Below are positions 10,861 to 36,069 of a stretch of DNA of 58,171 nucleotides, piece by piece. A model generated the notes under the pieces. The model had not been told where the DNA came from. It saw nothing but the letters and a program-made list of their open reading frames with translations, and ran no database searches. The stretch lies in NCBI GenBank assembly GCA_017996315.1, contig JAGOHE010000001.1, positions 1 to 58,171 of the forward strand, read 5' to 3'. The translations under genes were made by a program, and so were the position numbers. The stretch comes from Kiritimatiellia bacterium. Its GTDB lineage: Bacteria; Verrucomicrobiota; Kiritimatiellia; PWTM01. Numbering within the stretch: position 1 is the first letter of the stretch; each line of letters opens with the position of its first letter.

Positions 10861-10936
<76 letters not shown>

Positions 10937-11087: not shown

Positions 11088-14000
11088 ATGGTCACGCGAA
11101 GACGGCATCCGTTCGACATGACCGTAACCGAGTTCATCGCGAAGTGGCGCAAGGTGGAACTGAAAGAACGGTCCGCCGCTCAAACCCATTTCATTGACCT
11201 TTGCCGCGTCTTCGACCACCCCGACCCCGTGACGGCCGATCCGACCGGCGAAAGCTTCTGCTTTGAGAGGGGCGCAGCCAAGCACGGAGGCGGCGACGGC
11301 TTCGCGGACGTGTGGAAACGCGGCTTCTTCGGCATCGAATACAAAGGCAAACACAAAGACCTTCTTGAAGCCTACGACCAGCTTCTACGCTACCGCGACG
11401 CCCTGGAAAGCCCACCCCTGCTTCTCTGCTGCGACCTTGACCGCATCGTCATTCATACCAACTTCACCGGCACCGTTTCGGCGACCCATGACATACCCCT
11501 TGAAGCCCTTGCCGAACCCCGCAACATCGAAATCATGCGGGCGGTCTTCCACGATCCCGAAGCCCTCCGCCCAGGCCGCACGAGTACCGCCGTCACCCAG
11601 GATGCCGCCCGGCACTTCGCCGAAATCGCCGCCGCCATGCGCGCGCGCGGCCTTGACCCGGCCGCCGTCGCCCACTTCCTTGACCGCCTGGTCTTCTGCC
11701 TCTTCGCCGAAGACACCCGCCTCTTGCCCGATATGGTCTTCAGCCGAATCGTGACGCAAGCGGCCGGCGACCCCGCCCGCTTCTGCAAGATTTTGGCGCA
11801 ACTCTTCGACACGATGGCGACCGGCGGCGACTTCGGCCTTGAACCCATCCGCCATTTCAACGGCAACCTGTTCGATGACCGCACCGTCCTTGACCTCACC
11901 GCCGACGAAGTGAAGCGCATCGCCGCCGCCGCAACCCTCGATTGGAGCGCCGTTGACCCTTCCATCTTCGGCACCCTGTTTGAACGCGGCCTTGACCCCA
12001 ACACCCGCGCGCAACTGGGCGCGCACTTCACCAGCCGGGAAGACATTGAACTCATCGTTGATGCCGTGGTCATGGCCCCGCTTCGCCGGGAGTGGGCGGA
12101 GACGAAGGCGGTCATCGGGAATCTCCTCGCGACGGGGAATAAGGCTCGGAGCGCGGGCGTCCCGCCCGCATCTTCCTCGAGCGTGAGCGTCCCGCCCGCA
12201 TCTTCCTCGAGCGCGGGCGTCCCGCCCGCATCTTCCTCGAGCGCGGGCGTCCCGCCCGCATCTTCCCCGAAACCGCCCCGTGAATGGCATTCCCGCGGAT
12301 ACCTCCCGCATTTCGACCACCCGGGCCTTGTCCAGACCATCACCTTCCGCCTGGCCGACTCGCTCCCCCCCAGCCTTGTTGAACGTCTTCTCGCGCACAA
12401 GGAGAATGCCGACGATCCGATGCTACGCCAGGAAATCGAAGATGCACTGGACGCGTCGCATGGCGCCTGCTACTTGCGCGATCCGCGCGTTGCCGCCGTT
12501 ATCCAGAACGCGCTGCTGCATTTCGATTCCGAACGCTATCGCCTGCTCGCATGGGTAGTCATGCCCAACCATGTTCATGTCATGCTTGAGACGCGAACCG
12601 GCCACCGTCTCGAAGACATCCTGCATTCCTGGAAGTCTTTCACGGCTCACGAGTGCAACCGCCTCCTGAATCGCACGGGGCGTTTCTGGCAGGAGGAATA
12701 TTTCGACCGATTCATCCGCGACGCAGAACACCTGCGCAAGGCGCGGGATTACATCGAGCGCAACCCCGTTAAAGCCGGGCTTTGCAAGAGGGCGGAGGAA
12801 TGGGCGTTTGGAAGCGCCGGATACCCAAAAGATGCGGGCGGGACGCCCACGCTCCCAATTGCGGGCGGGACGCCCACGCTCCCAGGAAAGACGCTCAGCC
12901 CCGCGAAACTCCGCAAGGCGCGCGGCGAAGCCGGCAGCGTCTTGCACCAGTTCCTGACAAAACTCCGCGCCGTCAAGATTCTCGATCCCGCCTGCGGCTC
13001 CGGGAACTTCCTCTATGTCGCCTTGCTCCGCCTGAAAGACCTGGAGAAAGAAGCCGCCGTCACCTTCCCCGGTGAACACGGCTTGGGTTCCTACCTGCCC
13101 GGCGTCAGCCCGCTGCAACTCTACGGCATCGAAACGAACGCCTACGCCCATGACCTTGCACAGATGACCGTATGGATTGGCTGGCTGCAATGGATTCGCG
13201 CCAACGGCTTCGGCTTCCCCGACAACCCCGTCCTGCGCCCCCTCACCAATAACATCCGCCGCATGGACGCTATCCTTAGGAGCGCGGGCGTCCCGCCCGC
13301 ATCTTCGGGAACGGCGGCCGTCCCGCCCGCATCTTCGGGAATGGCGGGCGGGACGCCCGCGCTCCCAGGCGAGGAACCCGAATGGCCCAAGGTTGACTTC
13401 ATCATCGGCAACCCGCCGTTCCTTGGCGGGAACAAAATCCGCCAAGAACTCGGCGATGCTTATGTTGACGCTCTCTTTTCGTTGTACGCTGGCCGTGTGC
13501 CGGCTTTTGCCGACCTCTGCTGCTACTGGTTCGAGAAGGCCCGCGCCCACATCGCCGCCGGCAAGTGCAAACGCGCCGGACTGCTGGCAACCCAGGGCAT
13601 ACGCGGCGGCGCGAACCGGGAAGTCCTCAAGCGCATCAAGGAAACCGGCGGCATCTTCTGGGCGGAGAGTGATCGCCCTTGGATTCTCGATGGCGCGAAC
13701 GTTCACGTCAGCATGATCGGCTTCGGAGCTAAGGGCGAAATCCCTGGGAGCGCGGGCGTCCCGCCCGCTCTTAACGCTGGCGATAATGCGGCCGGGACGG
13801 CCGCGATCCCAGGGGCACTTCTCGACGGCAAGCCCGTCCCCACGATCAACGCGAATCTGACCGCCGCCGCCGACACGACACAAGCCGTCGTTTTGAAGCA
13901 GAATCTCAACCTGTGTTTCATGGGCCCGTCCCCAAAGGCCCCTTTCGACATCGGCCGTTCAACGGTGATGCCCTTGCTTGCACCGGCAGGGAACCCAGAT

Positions 14001-14942
14001 TGCCGGCCCAATTCTGATGTTCTTCGCCCCGTTGTAAGTGCTGTAGACATTGCACAAAGATCCCGTGGTGAATGGACGATTGACTTTGGGCTTCTCCCGA
14101 ATGGGGAAGCATCCAGATATGAAGCCCCCTTTGAGTATGTCAAAACCGTAGTCCTTCCCGTACGAGAGAAACGACGCGATGACTACCGTGGACTCTGGTG
14201 GCAATACGCACGTCCCAGACCTGACATGCGTATAGCATTGCGTGGGCTGGGTCGGTTTGTTGCAACACCCGCCGTGGCCAAGCACCGATTGTTTGTCTGG
14301 ATGGACCCCGTGTGTCTGTGTAACCAAGGCACGCTTGTCTTCGCCCGCTCCGACGACTACTTCTTCGGCATCCTGCACTCCCGCTTTCATGAAGTCTGGG
14401 CGCTGGCCCAGGGAACCCAGTTGCGAGAGAAGGAAAGCGGCTTCCGCTACACCCCGACCACCTGCTTTGAGACGTTCCCTTTCCCGGAGGCCCAGGCCGA
14501 ACGCGACGCGGCGATTGCCGCCGCCGCCAAGGAACTGAACGAACTCCGCGAAAACTGGCTGAATCCGCCGGACTGGACGCGCACCGAGACTCTGGAATTC
14601 CCCGGCACAGTCGGCGGCCCGTGGGATCGGTACATTGTCCCTGGGAGCGCGGGCGTCCCGCCCGCATCGTCGCAACGCGAGAACGAAAGCGGTCGGGACG
14701 CCCGCGCTCCCAGGGTGGGCACCGTGCGCTATCCGCGCCTTGTGCCGCGTGACGCCGACTGCTCGGCCCGGTTGAAGGAACGGACGTTGACGAAGCTCTA
14801 CAACGTGCGTCCGCCGTGGCTGGCCGACTGTCACGCCCGGCTTGACGCGGCGGTCGCCGCCGCCTACGGCTGGCCCGCCGACCTGCCCGACGAAGCGATC
14901 CTTGAACGCCTGCTGGCCCTGAACCAAGCGGCCGCCGGTTGA
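11088..14942 (+). CDS. MmeI-family type IIG/IIL restriction-modification enzyme (nuclease + N6-adenine methyltransferase + TRD) with embedded REP units and a RAYT module
   Basis: Single 1284-aa ORF (alternative start ATG at 11118, MTVTEFIAKWRK). N-terminal D...ExK nuclease core (FADVWKRGFFGIEYKGKHKDL), MTase motif I (ILDPACGSGNFLY), motif IV (IIGNPPFLGG), and the family C-terminus (LTKLYNVRPPWLADCHARLDAAVAAAYGW). All motifs are in one frame despite five blocks of repeat-derived sequence. Confidence 0.85.
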   Translation: MVTRRRHPFDMTVTEFIAKWRKVELKERSAAQTHFIDLCRVFDHPDPVTADPTGESFCFERGAAKHGGGDGFADVWKRGFFGIEYKGKHKDLLEAYDQLLRYRDALESPPLLLCCDLDRIVIHTNFTGTVSATHDIPLEALAEPRNIEIMRAVFHDPEALRPGRTSTAVTQDAARHFAEIAAAMRARGLDPAAVAHFLDRLVFCLFAEDTRLLPDMVFSRIVTQAAGDPARFCKILAQLFDTMATGGDFGLEPIRHFNGNLFDDRTVLDLTADEVKRIAAAATLDWSAVDPSIFGTLFERGLDPNTRAQLGAHFTSREDIELIVDAVVMAPLRREWAETKAVIGNLLATGNKARSAGVPPASSSSVSVPPASSSSAGVPPASSSSAGVPPASSPKPPREWHSRGYLPHFDHPGLVQTITFRLADSLPPSLVERLLAHKENADDPMLRQEIEDALDASHGACYLRDPRVAAVIQNALLHFDSERYRLLAWVVMPNHVHVMLETRTGHRLEDILHSWKSFTAHECNRLLNRTGRFWQEEYFDRFIRDAEHLRKARDYIERNPVKAGLCKRAEEWAFGSAGYPKDAGGTPTLPIAGGTPTLPGKTLSPAKLRKARGEAGSVLHQFLTKLRAVKILDPACGSGNFLYVALLRLKDLEKEAAVTFPGEHGLGSYLPGVSPLQLYGIETNAYAHDLAQMTVWIGWLQWIRANGFGFPDNPVLRPLTNNIRRMDAILRSAGVPPASSGTAAVPPASSGMAGGTPALPGEEPEWPKVDFIIGNPPFLGGNKIRQELGDAYVDALFSLYAGRVPAFADLCCYWFEKARAHIAAGKCKRAGLLATQGIRGGANREVLKRIKETGGIFWAESDRPWILDGANVHVSMIGFGAKGEIPGSAGVPPALNAGDNAAGTAAIPGALLDGKPVPTINANLTAAADTTQAVVLKQNLNLCFMGPSPKAPFDIGRSTVMPLLAPAGNPDCRPNSDVLRPVVSAVDIAQRSRGEWTIDFGLLPNGEASRYEAPFEYVKTVVLPVREKRRDDYRGLWWQYARPRPDMRIALRGLGRFVATPAVAKHRLFVWMDPVCLCNQGTLVFARSDDYFFGILHSRFHEVWALAQGTQLREKESGFRYTPTTCFETFPFPEAQAERDAAIAAAAKELNELRENWLNPPDWTRTETLEFPGTVGGPWDRYIVPGSAGVPPASSQRENESGRDARAPRVGTVRYPRLVPRDADCSARLKERTLTKLYNVRPPWLADCHARLDAAVAAAYGWPADLPDEAILERLLALNQAAAG
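12149..12266 (+). repeat. Four tandem 30-bp REP hairpin units (forward orientation) inside the R-M ORF
   Basis: Unit GAGCGCGGGCGTCCCGCCCGCATCTTCCTC repeated 4 times with a 30-bp period (10 codons, peptide SAGVPPASSS). Each unit contains the hairpin GCGGGCG-TCC-CGCCCGC. Confidence 0.9.
12829..12886 (+). repeat. Two tandem inverted-orientation REP units (27-bp period)
   Basis: GATGCGGGCGGGACGCCCACGCTCCCA then ATTGCGGGCGGGACGCCCACGCTCCCAGG, the reverse complement of the 12149 unit. Peptide DAGGTPTLPIAGGTPTLPG. Confidence 0.9.
13278..13369 (+). repeat. REP block: two forward units plus one inverted unit, just upstream of MTase motif IV
   Basis: AGGAGCGCGGGCGTCCCGCCCGCATCTTCGGGA, ACGGCGGCCGTCCCGCCCGCATCTTCGGGA, ATGGCGGGCGGGACGCCCGCGCTCCCAGG. 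Peptide SAGVPPASSGTAAVPPASSGMAGGTPALPG. Confidence 0.9.
13743..13813 (+). repeat. REPIN-like doublet (forward REP + degenerate inverted REP)
   Basis: CCTGGGAGCGCGGGCGTCCCGCCCGC ... GCGGCCGGGACGGCCGCGATCCCAGG. The inverted copy carries paired substitutions that keep its stem (GCGGCCG/CGGCCGC). Confidence 0.85.
14640..14714 (+). repeat. 75-bp REPIN with perfect 21-bp terminal inverted repeats
   Basis: CCTGGGAGCGCGGGCGTCCCG ... CGGGACGCCCGCGCTCCCAGG. Exactly 25 codons (peptide PGSAGVPPASSQRENESGRDARAPR) in the R-M frame. Confidence 0.9.
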
Positions 14943-15250: not shown

Positions 15251-15327
<77 letters not shown>

Positions 15328-16885: not shown

Positions 16886-18795
16886 CCCCCGGCCGCACCG
16901 CCGAGCGATCCGCCCTGTTCGCCACCGTCGTGGCGCTGGTGGTCCTCGCGCTTGTGGCCGTGGCCCGCGCGCCGGCTGCGCTGACCGGTCCCGGCATGGC
17001 CGTCGCGCTATGGGCCGCGGCGGTGGGCTTGCTGACCGCGCTCCGACTGCGCGCGCATCGCCGCGCCGCGGAAGAGCAACGCGACCTCGCCGTCACGGCC
17101 GGGGATCGTTCCGCGCTGTTCTCCTCCGAAGCCGGGGAGGATCCCTTCTCCGCCGCGCGCGCGCTCCGCTGGATCGAGCGATGGATCGCGCCGGCGTTCG
17201 GACCGCTGGCGGGCGCGGCGCTACTCGTGCTCGGACTCCGCTATGGCCGGGCCCTGCGCGAGGGGCTGGTCGCGTGGCCGGCCGATGGCGTGTCGCTGGG
17301 CGCGGCCGGGCTGCTGGCGACCGCGGCCGCCGGCGCGGCGGTGGTTGCCCGCTATATCGCGGTTCTCTCGCGCGCGCCCGCCCATGCGCCGTTGCGCGCG
17401 CCGGCGTCGGCGCTCGCCGTACTGGCGGCGCTGACGGGTCTGGCCGCCGCGACCGCCGCCGCCGCGGCGTCGGGGATCGCTCGCGCGCTGGCGATCGGCG
17501 CTCATGTCCAATGGATCGGACTCGCCATCCTCGGCGTCGAAAGTCTGCTGGTCTCCGTGGCCCGATTCTACCGTCCGGCCGCGCGCGCCGGCGTATCCGG
17601 CCTCGCCGCGCGGTTCGATTCCCCGATCGGCATGGCGCTGGCCGATCCTTCGCGCGCTCTGCGTCCGGCGGCGGAGTCGGTGGATTATCAGCTCGGGTTC
17701 CGCGCGTCGCAGACGTGGTGGTACCAGTTTGCCGTGCGCGCGCTGTTGCCGCTGGCGGTGTTCCAGGCGCTGGTGCTTTACGGACTTTCATGCGTGGTCG
17801 TTCTCGGCCCCGAGGAACAGGGCATCCGCGAGCGGCTCGGCCGCCCGCTGCCGGATGACGCGGGGGGCCGGCTCCTGTCCGGCCTGCATTTCAAAGCGCC
17901 GTGGCCGTTCGAAACCGTGCGCCGGTTCCCGGTGCAGCGGGTGCAGCGGTTTGACGCGGGATTTGCGCTTGCGGACGACGCGCCGCCGAGGGAAATGCTG
18001 TGGGCGCGACCGCATTTCGCGAGCGAGGACCGGTTCCTGACGCCCTCCCGCGACGCCTCGGGCGGACCCGGCGGCGCCGCGCCGGTGAACCTGCTTTCGG
18101 TGAACCTGCCCGTGCTGTACCAGGTCACCGACCTGCGCGCGTGGCTCTATGGCCATCGCAATCCCGCCGCGCTGCTGCGCGAGCTGGCGTACCGGGCGGT
18201 GACCCGCGAAGCGGCGGGGCGCGAGCTGGACGACATCCTCGGCGCGGGTCAGCGCGCGTTCGAATCCGCCCTGCGCGACCGTCTGCAACGCGACGCGCAT
18301 GCGATGAATCTCGGCGTGGAGATTCGATTCGTCGGATTGAACGGCGTGCATCCGCCGGTGCCGGTCGTCGCGGAGTACGAGGCCGTCTCGGGCTCGATCG
18401 AGGAGCGCGAGGCGCTGCGGCTCGACGGCCTGGCCTACGCCGTGGCGCGCGTGCCCCGGGCCGACGCGGAAGCGGCGCGCATGCTCGCCGAAGCCGCCGG
18501 CGAATCCGCGCGGCGGTCGGCGTCGGCCCGCGCCGAGGCCGATAGTTTCGAGCGTCGCCGCAGCGCCGAGCGCGAGGCTCCGGAGGTGTTCCGCGGCCGG
18601 GCCTATCTCGACGCGCTCGCGCGCGCGCTGCGCGGCGCCCGGCTGTATGTCGTCGCCACACGCGCGGACCAGGAAATCATCCAGTTCAATTTCGAAGACC
18701 GCACCCCCTCCTCGCTGTTCGATTGGAGCCCGCCGGCGCCCGCCGCGGGCCGAAGCACAGGCGGCGGCGCGGACGACCCGGGAGAGACCCGATGA
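16882..18795 (+). CDS. membrane protein: ~300-aa polytopic N-terminal region fused to an SPFH/band-7 (HflK/C-like) domain
   Basis: 637-aa ORF, ATGA overlap at both ends. SPFH core begins VVVLGPEEQGIRERLGRP...GLHFKAPWPFETVRRFPVQRVQ. C-terminal Ala/Arg/Glu-rich helical region. Confidence 0.75.
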   Translation: MTPGRTAERSALFATVVALVVLALVAVARAPAALTGPGMAVALWAAAVGLLTALRLRAHRRAAEEQRDLAVTAGDRSALFSSEAGEDPFSAARALRWIERWIAPAFGPLAGAALLVLGLRYGRALREGLVAWPADGVSLGAAGLLATAAAGAAVVARYIAVLSRAPAHAPLRAPASALAVLAALTGLAAATAAAAASGIARALAIGAHVQWIGLAILGVESLLVSVARFYRPAARAGVSGLAARFDSPIGMALADPSRALRPAAESVDYQLGFRASQTWWYQFAVRALLPLAVFQALVLYGLSCVVVLGPEEQGIRERLGRPLPDDAGGRLLSGLHFKAPWPFETVRRFPVQRVQRFDAGFALADDAPPREMLWARPHFASEDRFLTPSRDASGGPGGAAPVNLLSVNLPVLYQVTDLRAWLYGHRNPAALLRELAYRAVTREAAGRELDDILGAGQRAFESALRDRLQRDAHAMNLGVEIRFVGLNGVHPPVPVVAEYEAVSGSIEEREALRLDGLAYAVARVPRADAEAARMLAEAAGESARRSASARAEADSFERRRSAEREAPEVFRGRAYLDALARALRGARLYVVATRADQEIIQFNFEDRTPSSLFDWSPPAPAAGRSTGGGADDPGETR

Positions 18796-19712
18796 ATTCC
18801 AAACGCGCATGGATGCTGGCGCTGGGACTCGCCCTCGCGGCGTTGTTCGCGCTCAACCAGATCATTCTCATCGTGCATGAAGGCGAAGCGGTGGTGATGA
18901 CGACCTTCGGCCGTCCCGCCGCGAACCCCCTGACCGAGCCCGGATTGTATGTGCGCTGGCCGTGGCCGGTGCAGGCCGCGCATCGCATGGACACCCGCTG
19001 GCACACGCTGGAAGGCCCGCTGGAGCAGACCCTGACGAAGGACGGTCGCACGGTCATCGTCGCCCTGTTCGCCGGATGGCGCGTGGAGGATCCGATCGCC
19101 TTTCTGCTGCGCGTGGGCACGGAGTCCGCGGCGGAGCGGAATCTCGCGGGTCTTCTCGCCAATGCCCGAAATACCGTGCTGGGCGAACACCCGTTTTCAG
19201 CGCTGGTGAACACCGACGCCTCGGCGCTGATGTTCGACGACATCGAGCGCCGCATCCTGGAGCTGGCGCGGGAGGAAGCCCGGCGCAGCTATGGCATTGA
19301 ACTCACCGCGGTGGGAATCCGCCGTCTCGGCCTGCCCGAGAGCATCACCGAGCAGGTCTACCGGCGCATGCGGGCGGAACGCAACGCCGTGGCCGAAGGC
19401 TTCCGCGCGGAAGGCGCGCGCGAAGCCGCGCGCATTCGCGCCGAAGCGGACCGCGAGCGCGAGGAACGCATCGCGCAGGCGGAAGCCGAAGCCCGCCGGA
19501 TTCGCGCCGAGGGCGAAGCCGAAGCGGCGGACGCCTATCGCGCCTTCGCGGAGGACCCCGAGTTCGCGATGTTCCTGCGCAAACTCGACGTGCTGGAAGA
19601 GGTGCTGGGCGAACGCGCCACGGTGGTGCTGGGCTCGGAGGCGGAGCCGTTCGATCTGCTTTCGGCGCCGTCGGCGGACACAACCCGCGCCGGGAAAGAC
19701 ACGACGCCGTGA
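18792..19712 (+). CDS. SPFH/band-7 protein, HflC-like
   Basis: ORF 18723..19712; start ATG at 18792 overlaps the upstream stop. MNSKRAWMLALGLALAALFALNQIILIVHEGEAVVMTTFGRP...GLYVRWPWPVQ, followed by a coiled-coil EA-rich tail. Confidence 0.8.
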   Translation: MNSKRAWMLALGLALAALFALNQIILIVHEGEAVVMTTFGRPAANPLTEPGLYVRWPWPVQAAHRMDTRWHTLEGPLEQTLTKDGRTVIVALFAGWRVEDPIAFLLRVGTESAAERNLAGLLANARNTVLGEHPFSALVNTDASALMFDDIERRILELAREEARRSYGIELTAVGIRRLGLPESITEQVYRRMRAERNAVAEGFRAEGAREAARIRAEADREREERIAQAEAEARRIRAEGEAEAADAYRAFAEDPEFAMFLRKLDVLEEVLGERATVVLGSEAEPFDLLSAPSADTTRAGKDTTP

Positions 19713-20761
19713 GCGAACCCGTCCATCCTTCGCCCGACGCCTCCGCATCGCCGGCCGCGCACGCGACGTCCGAAGCCCTGCGCGCGGCGGCGCTGGGCCT
19801 GCGCGCGCTGATGTGGCTCCTGCTGCCCGCGTACCTGCTCTCCGGGCTGAAGGTCGTGCGGCAGGATCAGATGGCGGTGGTGACCGTCTGGGGACGCGCG
19901 CAGGCGGTGTGGTCCCCGGGTATCCACTGGACCTGGCCCCGGCCGATCTCCGAAATACGCGCCATCAACATGTCCACGGTGCGCTCGATGGACCATCTGC
20001 CCGCGCCGGAACTCCTCGACGATCCATCCGCGCCGCCGCCGATCGAAGCGGACGCCTGGTCGAACCTCCTGCTCACGGGCGATGCGCATCTGGTCCGCGC
20101 ACACTGGCGCCTTCGCTACCGGCTGGCGGATGCGGAGGCATGGCTATTGCGCTGGAAAGATCCCGAAGCGCGGTTGCGAATGGAGTTCGCGCATGCGGTC
20201 ACGCGGGTCATGGCGGGGCAACCGGTGGACGCGGCGCTGCGCACGGACGTGGAAACCATCCGCGCGCGCATCGCCGAGGATCTCGACCGGCGGGTGACCG
20301 AGGCCGGACTCGGGGCGCTGGTGGAGCGCGTCGAAGCCGTGTCGCTGCGCCCTCCGCCGGCGGTCGAGCGGGCGTTCGAGCAGGTTATCGTCGCGGAGAA
20401 CGAGCGCAGCGAACAGATGAACGCGGCCCGCGGCTACGCGGCCCGCGCGCGCGAGGAGTCTCTGGGCGAAGTATCGCGCGTCACCGCCGCCGCGCAGGCC
20501 GACCGCATTCGAACCCTCGCTTCGGCGCGCGCCGACGCCCGGTATTTTGAGCGCCTGTTGCCCGAGTACCGCGCCCGGCCCGGGCTGATCCGCAACACGC
20601 TGTGGCAGGAAACGATTCGCCGGCTGGCGCCGCGTTTGAAAGACCGGTACGTGCTGCCCCCCGGCGCGGGACCCCGTGAACTGCGGCTCTATCTCGGGCC
20701 GGAAGCTCACGCCCCCCGGTTGCGGACCCCGCCCGCCGGCGAGCCGGAGAACGCGCCCTGA
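19709..20761 (+). CDS. SPFH/band-7 protein, HflK-like
   Basis: 350-aa ORF with a GTG start overlapping the upstream stop (GTGA). One TM, then LKVVRQDQMAVVTVWGRAQAVWSPGIHWTWPRPISEI and an SPFH core. Confidence 0.75.
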   Translation: MSEPVHPSPDASASPAAHATSEALRAAALGLRALMWLLLPAYLLSGLKVVRQDQMAVVTVWGRAQAVWSPGIHWTWPRPISEIRAINMSTVRSMDHLPAPELLDDPSAPPPIEADAWSNLLLTGDAHLVRAHWRLRYRLADAEAWLLRWKDPEARLRMEFAHAVTRVMAGQPVDAALRTDVETIRARIAEDLDRRVTEAGLGALVERVEAVSLRPPPAVERAFEQVIVAENERSEQMNAARGYAARAREESLGEVSRVTAAAQADRIRTLASARADARYFERLLPEYRARPGLIRNTLWQETIRRLAPRLKDRYVLPPGAGPRELRLYLGPEAHAPRLRTPPAGEPENAP

Positions 20762-22674
20762 TGCCCGCCGATCCACATGACACCTCCGCTTCCGGCCATC
20801 CGGGACACCGCCACGCGCATCCGCGGGGAGCGGCCCGCCTGTTGGGCTGGGTGCTGCTCGGCGCGGCCTTTGTAATCGGCGGCTTCGTCGCGCGATGGAT
20901 GTATCCGGCCAATCCGATGGCGGCCGAGTTTTCGGCGGCCATTGGCGCGCTGATGATGGCCGCGCCCATTCTGATCAACGCCGTGCGCGACCTGTGGCGC
21001 GGTCATACACACATCGATGAACTCGTCGCGCTGGCCGTGCTGGCCTCCATCGCGCAGGGCGATTTTCACACGGCCGGGGTGATCGCGTTTTTCATGCTCC
21101 TGTCGGTCGTCATCGAAACCCGAACCGCCGAAGGCGCGCACGCGGCGATTGAAAGTCTGGTCCGCCTGACGCCCGCCACCGCCCGGCGCATCGGCGCGGA
21201 CGGCACGGAAACCTCCACCCCCGCCTCCGAGCTGCGTCCCGGCGACCGGATCCGGCTGCGTCCCGGCGACCAGGTACCCGCCGATGCTGTGCTCTCGGAG
21301 GGCCGCACGACGCTGAACGAAGCGACCGTGACGGGCGAATCGCTTCCGGCGGAAAAGGGACCCGGCGATGAAATCTTTGCGGGGACGCAGAACCTGACCG
21401 GCGCGTGCGTCGCCGAAGTCCTGCGAGCCGGAGAAGACACCACCATCGGCCGCGTGCGCCAGTTGATCCTCGCCGCGGAAGGCACCCGCCTCCCCTTCAC
21501 GCGCATCATTGACCGGTATGTGGGGTATTACACGCCGCTGGTGCTGGCGATCGCGGCGCTGGTGTGGTTCTTCACCGGCAGTTGGAGCCGCGTCGTGTCG
21601 GTGCTGGTGGTGTCCTGCCCGTGCGCGCTGATCCTCGCGACGCCAACGGCCATGGTGGCGGCCTTGTCGGCGGCGGCGCGGATGGGCATCCTGATCAAGC
21701 ACGTGGCCGATCTCGAGGCCTGCTCGCGCATCACCGCCTTCGTGTTCGACAAGACGGGAACGCTGACGCATGGCCGGCTGGCCGTGGCGCGTATGGCGCC
21801 GGCCGATGGGGTGCGCCCGAGCGAACTGCTGGCCGCGGCCGCCGGAGCGGAACAGCACAGCCACCATCCGGTCGCCCGCGCGCTCGTTCGACTGGCCGGG
21901 GAATCGGGCGTGCCGCTGGCCGCGTCGGCCGATGTGCACGAGGAATCGGGCCGGGGGGTGCGCGCGCTCGTGGACGGCGTTCAGGTACGGGTGGGCCGCT
22001 CGTCGTGGATTCGCGAGGAGGGCGGCGCAGCGCCCGACGACACCGGAGCGACCGACGCGGGCATGAGCGTGGTGCATGTCGAGGCGGGCGGGCGCTATCT
22101 GGGCCGGATCGCGCTGCAGGATGAAATTCGACCGGAATCGCGGCCCTGCCTCGAAACGCTGGCCGGTCTCGGCATACGGCGGACGGCCATGTTCACCGGC
22201 GACCGCGCGTCGGTCGCCCAATCGGTCGCCAACGCGATCGGCGTTCCCGAACTGCGCGCCGAGTGCCTGCCGCAGGCCAAGGTGGATTTTGTGCGCGAGA
22301 TTCGCTCCGCGGGTCATCGCGTGGCGGTCGTCGGCGACGGTGTCAACGACGCCCCTGCCCTGGCGGCGGGAGATATCAGCATCGCCATGGGCGCGGCGGG
22401 CAGCGATGCGGCGATCCACAGTTCGACCATCGCGCTGATGAACAACGATCTGAACCGGATTCCGTTCCTGTTGCGGCTCAGCCGGAATACGCGCGCGGTG
22501 ACGGTGCAGAATATCGCGGTGGGGCTGGCATTCATCGTATTCGGGCTGGCGCTCAGCAGCGCCGGCAAGATTCATCCGATCGTCGCGGCGCTCCTGCACA
22601 ACGCGGGATCGCTGGTGGTGATTTTCAACAGCGGCCGGCTGGTCCGCTCGTCCGCGGCCGACCCCGCGGGCTGA
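20761..22674 (+). CDS. heavy-metal-translocating P1B-type ATPase (Zn/Cd/Co-like CPC type), no HMA domain, His-rich N-terminus
   Basis: 637-aa ORF. Motifs SCPCALILATP, FDKTGTLTHG, VGDGVNDAPALAAGDISIAMG. N-terminus SGHPGHRHAHP. Its start overlaps the upstream stop by 1 nt. Confidence 0.9.
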   Translation: MPADPHDTSASGHPGHRHAHPRGAARLLGWVLLGAAFVIGGFVARWMYPANPMAAEFSAAIGALMMAAPILINAVRDLWRGHTHIDELVALAVLASIAQGDFHTAGVIAFFMLLSVVIETRTAEGAHAAIESLVRLTPATARRIGADGTETSTPASELRPGDRIRLRPGDQVPADAVLSEGRTTLNEATVTGESLPAEKGPGDEIFAGTQNLTGACVAEVLRAGEDTTIGRVRQLILAAEGTRLPFTRIIDRYVGYYTPLVLAIAALVWFFTGSWSRVVSVLVVSCPCALILATPTAMVAALSAAARMGILIKHVADLEACSRITAFVFDKTGTLTHGRLAVARMAPADGVRPSELLAAAAGAEQHSHHPVARALVRLAGESGVPLAASADVHEESGRGVRALVDGVQVRVGRSSWIREEGGAAPDDTGATDAGMSVVHVEAGGRYLGRIALQDEIRPESRPCLETLAGLGIRRTAMFTGDRASVAQSVANAIGVPELRAECLPQAKVDFVREIRSAGHRVAVVGDGVNDAPALAAGDISIAMGAAGSDAAIHSSTIALMNNDLNRIPFLLRLSRNTRAVTVQNIAVGLAFIVFGLALSSAGKIHPIVAALLHNAGSLVVIFNSGRLVRSSAADPAG

Positions 22675-30540: not shown

Positions 30541-30658
30541 ATCCCGGCAACGTGCTACTCTCCCGAGGCCTGTCGCCTGAGTACCATCGCCGCTGAGGGT
30601 CTTAACGGCCGTGTTCGGAATGGGAACGGGTGTTTTCCCCTCGCTATAATCACCGGGA
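30541..30658 (-). rRNA. rrf: 5S ribosomal RNA
   Basis: The reverse complement contains conserved 5S blocks (CCCGTTCCCATTCCGAACACGG...GGTACTCAGGCG...GGGAGAGTAGCACGTTGCCGGGA). Ends approximate within a few nt. Confidence 0.9.
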
Positions 30659-30724
30659 AAAAAGTATTGCATAGGAAAGGGGAGGCGGACGGCTCCGCGG
30701 GGGAGCCAATCCGCCGTAAAAATT

Positions 30725-33673
<2,949 letters not shown>

Positions 33674-33796
33674 AAAAATTGGTCGTTCAACATTCACTGA
33701 AAATTTCAGTGAGTCGTAATTTTTTCCCCAATTCCTATGCAATTGTCAAAGAACCACCCGCCAAAGCGGGAAAATGGTTTTACATGGCGGCACGCC

Positions 33797-33873
33797 TGGT
33801 GGGCGTGACTGGAGTCGAACCAGTGACCTCGTCCTTATCAGGGACGCGCTCTAACCAACTGAGCTACACGCCC
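33797..33873 (-). tRNA. tRNA-Ile (anticodon GAT) in the 16S-23S spacer
   Basis: The reverse complement is GGGCGTGTAGCTCAGTTGGTTAGAGCGCGTCCCTGATAAGGACGAGGTCACTGGTTCGACTCCAGTCACGCCCACCA; anticodon loop CTGATAA. Confidence 0.92.
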
Positions 33874-33952
33874 GGAGTTTCTGGCCTGCCCGGGCGTAGT
33901 TCCGTGATGGTCATCGCGCCCAGCTCCGTGTCCGTTCCGAGGAAACGAAGCC

Positions 33953-34028
33953 TGGTGGAGGCAACCGGGTTCGAACCGGTGACCCCAAGCTTGCAAAGCT
34001 TGTGCTCTACCAACTGAGCTATGCCCCC
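33953..34028 (-). tRNA. tRNA-Ala (anticodon TGC) in the 16S-23S spacer
   Basis: The reverse complement is GGGGGCATAGCTCAGTTGGTAGAGCACAAGCTTTGCAAGCTTGGGGTCACCGGTTCGAACCCGGTTGCCTCCACCA; G3:U70, anticodon loop TTTGCAA. Confidence 0.92.
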
Positions 34029-34204
34029 GGATGTCACCGGCGCCGGTCGGCATTTCCGGCCCGTACGCCATGCTGAATAGCGGAGCGCTGTAGTACCCTG
34101 AATCAAGAATGGTGCGATTTGCTTGGCTTGGCCCCTTCCCCCGGACGAATCCAGAGGAGATAACCTATCCAAACCCGAGCCGAAGCTCGAGATGGATGCT
34201 CCTT

Positions 34205-35764
<1,560 letters not shown>

Positions 35765-36069
35765 GTAATTATTTACATAGTTACTTTTGGAGCTGCCAGC
35801 GGGGCTAACCGCCAGCACTTTGTTGTCCTGTTACGGACCCAATTAAATTGCCTCTTGCGATCACTCGCAATAGGCCGGGCACAAGCTCGTCACAAATCGC
35901 ACCACTCTTGATTCAGAGTGGCGCTCAAAACGCTATTCAAATTTCAAAGAACACAAAGCAACCGCTTCAACCGTTGCCCCGACTTTTCAGCGGGGACGGC
36001 CTCGGCAGTCACCTGAACTGCTCCGGCGTGCGCGTGCTTTTATGCGCACGCCATCACTGAATCTTCCGC

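Follow-up and report, generated by a model that had tools for sequence, protein, structure and literature searches.

Repetitive extragenic palindromic (REP) sequences and the REP-associated tyrosine transposases (RAYTs) are among the commonest repeats of bacteria, and neither the way in which REPs spread nor the role of the RAYTs is settled. Among the described systems that come closest to the locus reported here is the REPtron, which Nunvar (2010) and Bertels and Rainey (2011) are said to have described, a RAYT (or TnpA_REP) gene placed between inverted REPs. The present analysis concerns an entire contig of 58,171 bp from a Kiritimatiellae metagenome-assembled genome (MAG), hereafter the window. 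In this window, a REPtron with its RAYT sits inside the reading frame of a type IIG restriction-modification (R-M) gene of the MmeI family, where it occupies the linker that joins the helical spacer to the methyltransferase (MTase) domain, and REP doublets (REPINs) occur in frame further downstream in the same gene.

REPtrons, the biochemistry of RAYTs and REPINs are well described (PMC3333891, Ton-Hoang 2012; PMC8266576, Corneloup 2021). The element of the window resembles them in its HUH motif, its catalytic tyrosine and a score above the cut-off of the NCBIfam equivalog, as well as in its REP flanks of opposite orientation, its REPIN doublets and the fact that REP variants differ between RAYT-bearing genes. 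Known REPtrons, however, are stand-alone and intergenic with their own start and stop, whereas that of the window has neither and forms an internal domain of another protein, with every REP copy seen confined to one host gene.

REPs in frame within genes are not in themselves new, although the initial annotation of this locus had taken them to be unprecedented. The sections of Di Nocera 2013 (PMC3733652) considered here tabulate in-frame intragenic REPs in several species, most of them in the verrucomicrobium Opitutus terrae, list GTAG-19 peptides (GTGVPPV...) for dnaE2 as well as for an 'N-6 DNA methylase', and relate these REPs to the Rickettsia palindromic elements (RPEs; Ogata 2000 as cited there). 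As presented in those sections, the O. terrae REPs and the RPEs share with the window short in-frame palindromic repeats in real genes, which add 20-80 extra residues, often in DNA-handling proteins, and the Planctomycetes-Verrucomicrobia-Chlamydiae (PVC) superphylum is involved in both. A second REP type found here (GTGVPPV..HGQDAHAT) opens with the GTGVPPV motif of the GTAG-19 peptides tabulated there, and the GTGG variant that the same sections report for O. terrae GTAG-20 is also present in the 51-nt REP of locus L004 (see below). The window shows what defines such in-frame repeats, namely inserts with lengths that are multiples of three (3n) and that are absent from close homologues, in a sequence with a ratio of non-synonymous to synonymous substitution rates (dN/dS) below 0.35. 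No in-frame transposase gene, no gene with five blocks and 13 units and no bias towards defence MTases was found in the sections considered, and no description of an in-frame RAYT within a host gene, or of an association between RAYTs and methyltransferases, was found in the literature searched. The in-frame RAYT thus appears to be new, in-frame REPs being already known.

Inteins offer a further comparison, as they too are selfish enzyme genes without expression signals of their own that are carried in frame in a host open reading frame (ORF), translated by the host and polymorphic for presence or absence between near-identical alleles. They differ in that the RAYT insert is expected to stay in the mature protein and encodes an HUH transposase that has cognate DNA hairpins instead of a homing endonuclease; no intein family was matched in the Pfam scan of the window protein, in which splicing motifs were not looked for.

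Anatomy of the gene

The ORF check bears out that positions 11088-14942 form a single unbroken ORF of 1284 codons, as initially annotated. Its features are listed below in the order in which they occur.

11088..14942, + strand: MmeI-family type IIG R-M gene with in-frame REPtron and REPINs, one ORF of 1284 codons
11118..11645, + strand: MmeI N-terminal nuclease domain, aa 11-186 (Pfam PF20464, 40.9 bits, cut-off 27)
11298-11351, + strand: D-X9-E-X-K nuclease motif within GFADVWKRGFFGIEYKGK, from alignment to MmeI 5HR4
11664..11873, + strand: MmeI helical spacer, aa 193-262 (Pfam PF20465, 48.8 bits)
12147..12266, + strand: REP block 1, flanking the RAYT on its left, four forward units repeated every 30 nt, peptide RSAGVPPASSSSVSVPPASSSSAGVPPASSSSAGVPPASS
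12267..12830, + strand: RAYT (HUH/Y1) domain, aa 394-581, between blocks 1 and 2
12570-12578, + strand: HUH motif (HVH) of the RAYT domain, aa 495-497
12750-12767, + strand: YIERNP (Y-x3-NP) of the RAYT domain with the catalytic Tyr555, aa 555-560
12829..12887, + strand: REP block 2, flanking the RAYT on its right, two inverted units repeated every 27 nt with a shared stem mismatch, peptide DAGGTPTLPIAGGTPTLPG
12933..13727, + strand: MmeI MTase domain, aa 616-880 (Pfam PF20473, 78.7 bits), interrupted by REP block 3
12981-13013, + strand: motif I LDPACGSGNFL, within the MTase domain
13278..13370, + strand: REP block 3, units forward, forward and inverted (a REPIN plus one extra unit), z -7.1
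13410-13421, + strand: motif IV NPPF, within the MTase domain
13743..13814, + strand: REP block 4, at the boundary of the MTase and the target-recognition domain (TRD), REPIN, +69 nt, z -6.6, window-specific
13815..14330, + strand: variable (swapped) target-recognition segment, ca. codons 871-1080, from comparison of nt identity
14640..14714, + strand: REP block 5, REPIN with 27-nt arms, -45.4 kcal/mol, z -10.6, +42 nt

The segment between blocks 1 and 2 matches both Pfam PF01797 (Y1_Tnp; 35.5 bits for a cut-off of 23) and NCBIfam NF047646 (REP_Tyr_transpos; 91.6 for a cut-off of 80) and aligns with the E. coli TnpA_REP (PDB 4ER8). It is flanked by four forward REPs on the left and two inverted REPs on the right, the arms of which are 96% complementary, and the whole insert of 278 residues occupies the place of ca. 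5 MmeI residues (341-347). Blocks 1 and 2 are thus the left and right flanks of one RAYT, that is a single REPtron, and do not count among five independent insertions as had been proposed. The initial annotation had correctly recognised REP inserts in the frame of a defence enzyme but had overlooked the RAYT that blocks 1 and 2 enclose, the most unusual feature of the locus.

This RAYT lacks its own start and stop codons and shares the reading frame of the host: no in-frame ATG, GTG or TTG occurs between block 1 and WHSRGY, and no stop follows the RAYT domain. Having lost both signals, it would be made only through translation of the host gene. Internal initiation was considered and rejected, as the sole nearby in-frame candidate is a GTG in a mutated REP unit (12183) that has no Shine-Dalgarno-like sequence upstream; no corresponding start was seen in the protein sequences of homologues. 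The promoter and terminator scan and the Rfam search gave no match within the R-M gene. Free-standing relatives of the RAYT are ORFs of 198-285 aa from stop to stop and, in the BLASTP table, are at most 64% identical to it; this search, made with the RAYT segment, returned only short free-standing RAYTs, with none of the long embedded ones and not the window protein itself among them, and was not used to judge generality.

In the AlphaFold2 (AF2) model of the homologue P0003 (1198 aa), the RAYT domain has a block-mean predicted local distance difference test score (pLDDT) of 76-95, and the REP-encoded segments 351-392, 570-587, 720-731 and 1087-1107 fall below 50. Only the per-residue confidence of this model was used (mean pLDDT 67; predicted template modelling score, pTM, 0.32). 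The prediction fits a RAYT that would form a folded extra domain on floppy tethers.

The host enzyme was likewise found to belong where it had first been placed, in the MmeI family of type IIG enzymes. Profile searches detected the nuclease, helical spacer, MTase and TRD (MmeI_N, MmeI_hel, MmeI_Mtase and MmeI_TRD) above their cut-offs and all in one frame, and the PADLOC profile REase_MTase_IIG scored 893 bits. The MmeI_TRD match (aa 1071-1134), which follows the swapped segment, covers only the last third of the profile and reaches 28.2 bits for a cut-off of 27; MmeI_C has no match in the window protein and matches in the homologues P0012 and P0036, and the C-terminal LTKLYN..AAYGW is kept among homologues. 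Four collinear stretches align with MmeI (PDB 5HR4), in which GFADVW..GIEYKGK of the window corresponds to gfvDlf..liEmKsrgk, with D-X9-E-X-K, LDPACGSGNFL and NPPF conserved. Both enzymes have the same order of nuclease, helical spacer, gamma-class N6-adenine (N6A) MTase and TRD, the last being a putative one in the window enzyme, and they share the catalytic motifs and TRD swapping between close alleles. The window enzyme differs by its low sequence identity to MmeI, the missing MmeI_C match and ca. 365 added residues of mobile-element origin at five sites. The blocks lie between the conserved modules or at their edges, with the modules in one shared frame, in agreement with the initial annotation.

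Identity of the repeated units

Each unit consists of a 7-bp stem with a TCC loop and, in the window, is directly preceded on the 5' side of the stem by GGGAGC (GGAG, not GTAG), where REPs of RAYTs have a conserved GTAG or CGTC tetranucleotide. The core GCGGGCGTCCCGCCCGC has 13 matches with up to two mismatches, all of them within the R-M ORF and grouped in five blocks, for a chance expectation of 0.35; none of 100 shuffles reaches 13. When three mismatches are allowed, the regions outside the gene yield only four more matches, about as many as expected by chance (2.85), and these do not form hairpins. A k-mer census of the other 54 kb of the window also found no REP-type repeat outside the gene, so that the count of 13 units in five blocks and their absence elsewhere on the contig hold as first stated. 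The peptides attributed to the units require one amendment: 12 of the 13 units read SAGVPPA or AGGTPAL as described, but the inverted unit of block 5 reads SGRDARAPR. Blocks 3, 4 and 5 are doublets of the REPIN type that fold as long hairpins (-36 to -47 kcal/mol, z -6.6 to -10.6). The extragenic placement that is typical of REPs is not observed, all 13 copies being within one ORF.

Outside the window, the exact 21-mer GAGCGCGGGCGTCCCGCCCGC was found in at least 120 stretches of GTDB genomes belonging to many phyla, with Proteobacteria, Chloroflexi, Planctomycetes, Acidobacteria, Verrucomicrobia, Sumerlaeota, Armatimonadota, Actinomycetes and others among the matches listed. In these listed matches, 101 of 136 REP clusters have no stop-free frame reaching 80 codons on both sides and lie between genes or at gene ends; a free-standing RAYT adjoins the REP at four loci, an MmeI gene at none, and the spacing of doublets varies from 23 to 179 nt with no 3n rule. 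A few clusters (L008, L097 and L033) appear to be truly in frame within other genes. This census shows that the hairpins are genuine REPs, as had been proposed. It also bears on the idea that the blocks are native low-complexity linkers of the protein family, for which similar Gly/Ala/Pro-rich peptides at matching sites in homologues could be cited. Native linkers would not recur as an exact 21-mer at unrelated loci across phyla, mostly outside long ORFs and in some cases beside RAYTs; moreover, the nearest alleles P0004 and P0005 lack the segments, and the units form strong DNA hairpins with compensatory changes (see below). We consider this idea refuted by the census and its remaining probability negligible.

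The range of phyla in which the 21-mer occurs (L005-L124) is unusually wide for a REP family and suggests either that the REP/RAYT pair is often transferred horizontally or that constraint is very strong. In-frame REPINs were also seen within the free-standing RAYT genes P0125 and P0137 (..LLAGARASCPQNKDAGGTPALRQ.. in the latter), and a decayed REPIN relic, AGARAFGPQ, is located at the matching loop of the RAYT embedded in P0010 and P0036 (L003:5260-5276 in P0036).

Preservation of the frame and selection

Alignment with REP-free or REP-poor alleles defined net inserts of +714, +81, +69 and +42 nt in the window and of +9, +48, +42, +147 and +33 nt in relatives, all of which are multiples of three. 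The 739-nt REPtron can be read without stops in the RAYT sense frame but in none of the other five, and any allele that keeps the host ORF must therefore carry the RAYT in frame. In four RAYT-bearing genes, the REP hairpin starts at codon phase 0 in 39 of 40 cases, and this phase gives the sole Arg-free frame in each orientation (SAGVPPA and AGGTPAL versus GARASRPH, ERGRPAR and RDARAP). Compensatory stem variants, GCGGCCG..CGGCCGC (present in the inverted arm of block 4) and GCAGGCG..CGCCTGC, preserve pairing at the price of two amino-acid changes; the hairpins themselves are also under constraint.

Two explanations of the open frame had been put forward, selection on the protein or an insertion mechanism of constrained length. 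The second is not needed, given that REPIN spacings elsewhere are not 3n and that only one frame of six is stop-free, and the 23-179-nt spacings rule out an intrinsic 3n length for the REP of the window; the 51-nt REP of L004 is itself a multiple of three. As inserts are 3n here and no 3n rule holds elsewhere, protein-level selection is sufficient for this REP, and the preservation of the frame is best explained by the survival of ORF-preserving alleles. Phase variation by changes in repeat number was also ruled out because the 30- and 27-nt periods preserve the frame.

Selection was estimated as dN/dS by the Nei-Gojobori method against L001, L002 and L003, in all of which the site is likewise occupied by a RAYT of this family. 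Values were 0.07-0.33 in every segment of the enzyme on either side of the RAYT, which itself gave 0.13-0.15, and the catalytic motifs of the enzyme and of the RAYT are intact in all homologues. Purifying selection thus acts on both, and the first of the two explanations, that selection holds the frame open, is supported. The same data speak to the alternative of a dead gene, inactivated by the insertions and open only through the rarity of stops at 64% GC. GC-rich DNA does tolerate long open frames, and several long spurious ORFs overlap the gene in other frames. Stops nevertheless occur in five of the six REPtron frames, every catalytic motif is intact, the low dN/dS also holds for the part of the enzyme that follows the RAYT, and no fewer than seven diverged homologues, which differ in sample and assembler of origin, have an open gene of the same architecture, all of which makes a dead gene very improbable.

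Distribution and history among MmeI homologues

A RAYT of the same family was found at the same site in P0002, P0003, P0010, P0036 and P0246, with two RAYT sublineages represented. The window, P0002 and P0003 have embedded RAYTs that group in a clade of their own, with 71-79% identity to one another and 63-69% to the best free-standing relative; that of P0010 and P0036 belongs to the other sublineage and is 80% identical to the free-standing P0170. A second RAYT family occurs at the block-3 site in P0017 and P0022 with its own composite REP of 51 nt (17 codons), two copies of which flank the RAYT of L004, and further RAYT sites exist in P0319 and P0330. REPs at sites 1, 3 and 5 are already present in diverged homologues (P0002, P0003, P0008 and P0013, all four of which have REPs at the site matching block 3, with a REPIN also at the block-5 site in P0008 and P0013), so that the blocks are not five independent recent events. 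The closest alleles, P0004 and P0005, have plain linkers at every site, and block 3 represents +81 nt when compared to P0005.

Comparison with P0005, which has no RAYT and no REP, revealed 93-99% nt identity at codons 121-330 and 89-94% at codons 631-720. The RAYTs of the window and of P0002, on the other hand, are 67-83% identical at the nt level, with a synonymous divergence (dS) of 1.1 versus 0.3 in the flanks. Because of this difference, and because a near-identical allele is RAYT-free, the cassette is older than its present flanks, and it has either moved between MmeI alleles by recombination or been lost without a scar. Among 80 metagenomic relatives of the REP-free allele that were sampled at the DNA level for frameshifted or out-of-frame RAYT insertions, none carried a RAYT, and the trait is therefore rare within the MmeI family and confined to a few lineages. 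All but one of these 80 have intact ORFs (L145 is frameshifted). An interruption of the gene in L129 proved to be apparent only: it corresponds to a second copy of the last 33 codons (L129:6684-6782), located 1.3 kb downstream of the intact gene with a helix-turn-helix-like ORF in between, which may be a remnant of gene replacement. The junction gave no record in the plasmid collection. In the window, L001, L002 and L004, every REP-type repeat is inside the gene and none is in the flanks.

The swapped target-recognition segment is 34-77% identical at the nt level to relatives that reach 73-99% elsewhere in the host sequence. Its left edge is marked by block 4, and no REP is present at its right edge (ca. 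codon 1080); REPs as both borders of the swap were thus rejected, the left border alone coinciding.

Other repeat families were noticed in P0008 and P0013 (L206:1501-4728), in which the peptide PSTSSGQAAQ stands in place of GGGD immediately ahead of the nuclease motif and NLFD is followed by PPSLKLRRTSPPSPGG..AGQAGGTS, indicating that several repeat families colonise one gene lineage.

These comparisons also bear on whether the locus could be an assembly artefact, in which k-mers common to the REPs led the metagenome assembly to place the RAYT within the gene. The contig is derived from a MAG, and repeated REPs can confuse de Bruijn graph assemblers. The junctions ..SS/G/A-KPPREWH.., however, are found again in assemblies made independently (MAGs at NCBI, SPAdes and MEGAHIT contigs at ENA), and the embedded RAYTs of the window, P0002 and P0003 stand apart from the free-standing ones as a clade. 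A chimera would furthermore need an inverted REP beside the right-hand host sequence, which the solo-REP alleles P0008 and P0013 do not have. An artefact is on these grounds extremely improbable.

RAYTs in other methyltransferase genes

The RAYT segment was searched, without an index, against 1.84 billion cluster representatives, which returned 16,068 relatives, and the best 150 of these were inspected. They include 21 proteins of at least 450 aa with a fused or embedded RAYT, the hosts of which were identified by Pfam, PADLOC and BLAST. Defence DNA methyltransferases of four unrelated families account for 14 of these 21 hosts, a proportion to be read with the caution that representatives may favour long or diverse proteins and that the query RAYT itself comes from an MmeI gene. 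The hosts are the following.

MmeI family: P0246 (same site as in the window), P0319 (inside the MTase domain), P0330 (between the MTase and the TRD)
HmaB / DUF1156 DNA-adenine methylases: P0254, P0266, P0275, P0277, P0295, P0323, P0363
Type III Mod methyltransferases: P0261, P0279
Second type IIG family: P0385, P0386
Other hosts: a metallophosphatase, a creatininase split by REP-RAYT-REP, an HAD hydrolase, a ferredoxin, a WYL-RAYT-WCX regulator, one unknown and one helicase-like protein

In at least P0254, P0266, P0277 and P0295, the RAYT follows the conserved host motif TFSDLV, and the PADLOC matches of P0266 and P0363 place the RAYT point at ca. 458-460 on the HmaB profile. RAYTs within one host family are mostly nearest relatives of one another. 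Those of the HmaB set are 54-75% identical (P0275, in which the site is another one, was left out), and the hosts P0254 and P0295, the sole pair aligned over most of its length, are 46% identical. Judging by nearest neighbours, RAYTs would have become embedded in MTase genes on at least eight separate occasions. In-frame residence in defence MTase genes is apparently a wider habit of RAYTs, and one that seems to be undescribed.

Such recurrence raises the question of a functional partnership, or exaptation, in which the RAYT/REP module would be kept for work for or with defence DNA methyltransferases. It may take the form of an HUH activity on single-stranded DNA, of REP-bounded shuffling of TRDs, or of R-M genes serving as a dedicated vehicle or homing site. 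The host spectrum of the best 150 relatives (two type IIG families, type III Mod and HmaB) is in its favour, as are RAYTs at least as conserved as their host in the one aligned pair (54-75% among HmaB RAYTs for 46% between hosts), the low dN/dS of the RAYT and the position of block 4 at the left edge of the swapped TRD segment. Yet most close MmeI relatives do without a RAYT (the 80 sampled above), among them the closest allele P0005, and the right edge of the swapped TRD lacks a REP. The full selfish anatomy, with inverted REP flanks and REPIN copies, has also been kept, unlike in a clean domain fusion, and counts of cluster representatives may over-count diverse MTase hosts. Such exaptation is on balance unlikely. 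The broader proposal of a specific partnership between RAYT/REP modules and defence MTases that has evolved repeatedly, with RAYTs that co-diverge and use these genes as vehicle or homing site or aid their function, is entertained here tentatively and is doubtful.

A probable translated passenger filtered by selection

The probable reading, and the one preferred here, is a passive one in which a selfish in-frame REPtron is carried as a passenger and filtered by selection. The RAYT gene, its inverted cognate REPs and three downstream REPIN doublets reside in the frame of a solitary MmeI-family gene, each piece in an inter-domain linker or loop. As all pieces are stop-free and 3n in length, the gene would be translated into one polypeptide of 1284 aa, from which the RAYT would be looped out as an extra domain tethered by REP-encoded linkers that are rich in Gly, Ala, Pro and Ser and probably disordered. 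Selection on the enzyme would purge insertions outside the one stop-free frame, while selection on the RAYT and on the DNA hairpins would maintain the element. We infer that the downstream REPINs were seeded locally by the embedded RAYT, as we do the route by which the cassette spread.

Several points weigh against the passive reading or restrict it. Some of the dN/dS signal may be older than the insertion. Activity is presumed for the enzyme as for the RAYT. The confinement of REPs to the gene rests on 54 kb of the window and on ca. 20 kb of flanks from three related loci, and is compatible with a density elsewhere below ca. 1 per 25 kb. Given the low global confidence of the P0003 model, the predicted packing of the domains is beyond its reach. 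Finally, the bias of embedded RAYTs towards MTase hosts is unexplained by a purely passive passenger.

Genomic context and annotation

The R-M gene is solitary between two tRNA genes, with no integrase seen:

10861..10936, + strand: tRNA-Ala(GGC), directly upstream of the R-M gene
15251..15327, - strand: tRNA-Met(CAT), directly downstream of the R-M gene

As far as they were identified, the neighbours code for a sulfatase and a hybrid histidine kinase and resemble ordinary genes of the chromosome. Elsewhere, the window contains a complete rRNA operon (30542-35766, - strand) composed of 5S, 23S, a spacer with tRNA-Ile and tRNA-Ala, and 16S, and a region of elevated GC content at 17000-22000 (0.70-0.74 versus ca. 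0.63 around it) in which the ORFs tested at the region start had no Pfam match. Small toxin-antitoxin-like or defence-like genes (MqsA-antitoxin-like, DUF4258, nucleotidyltransferase/HEPN and HIRAN) often directly follow the MmeI homologues (L002:7594-7824, L004:7678-8216, L206:4746-5989 and L205:4463-5626), which suggests defence-island contexts for these homologues; the neighbourhood differs at every locus.

The sequence look-up gave no record of the exact 1284-aa product, and a 1274-aa call of the same gene surfaced in the homologue search. The only product name given by NCBI is 'transposase' (MBP7274581.1), and annotation leaks in the other direction as well, since several free-standing RAYTs of ca. 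200 aa, such as P0136, P0196 and P0207, are named 'putative DNA methylase' by JGI.

Implications

The locus constitutes a compact natural system, in which the transposase, the REPs on either side of it and all REPIN copies observed on the contig are gathered in one gene, and for which near-identical cassette-free alleles are at hand for comparison. It indicates that a transposase can be retained over long periods inside a host enzyme, as an internal domain that is translated with it and not spliced out, and that fusions of RAYT and R-M sequences mislead annotation pipelines in both directions. The preponderance of defence MTases among the long hosts of the best 150 relatives, with its separate embedding events, points to an unrecognised link between REP/RAYT systems and restriction-modification. 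If the partnership were true, it would provide a concrete biological context for RAYTs, a group of proteins whose cellular role is unsettled.

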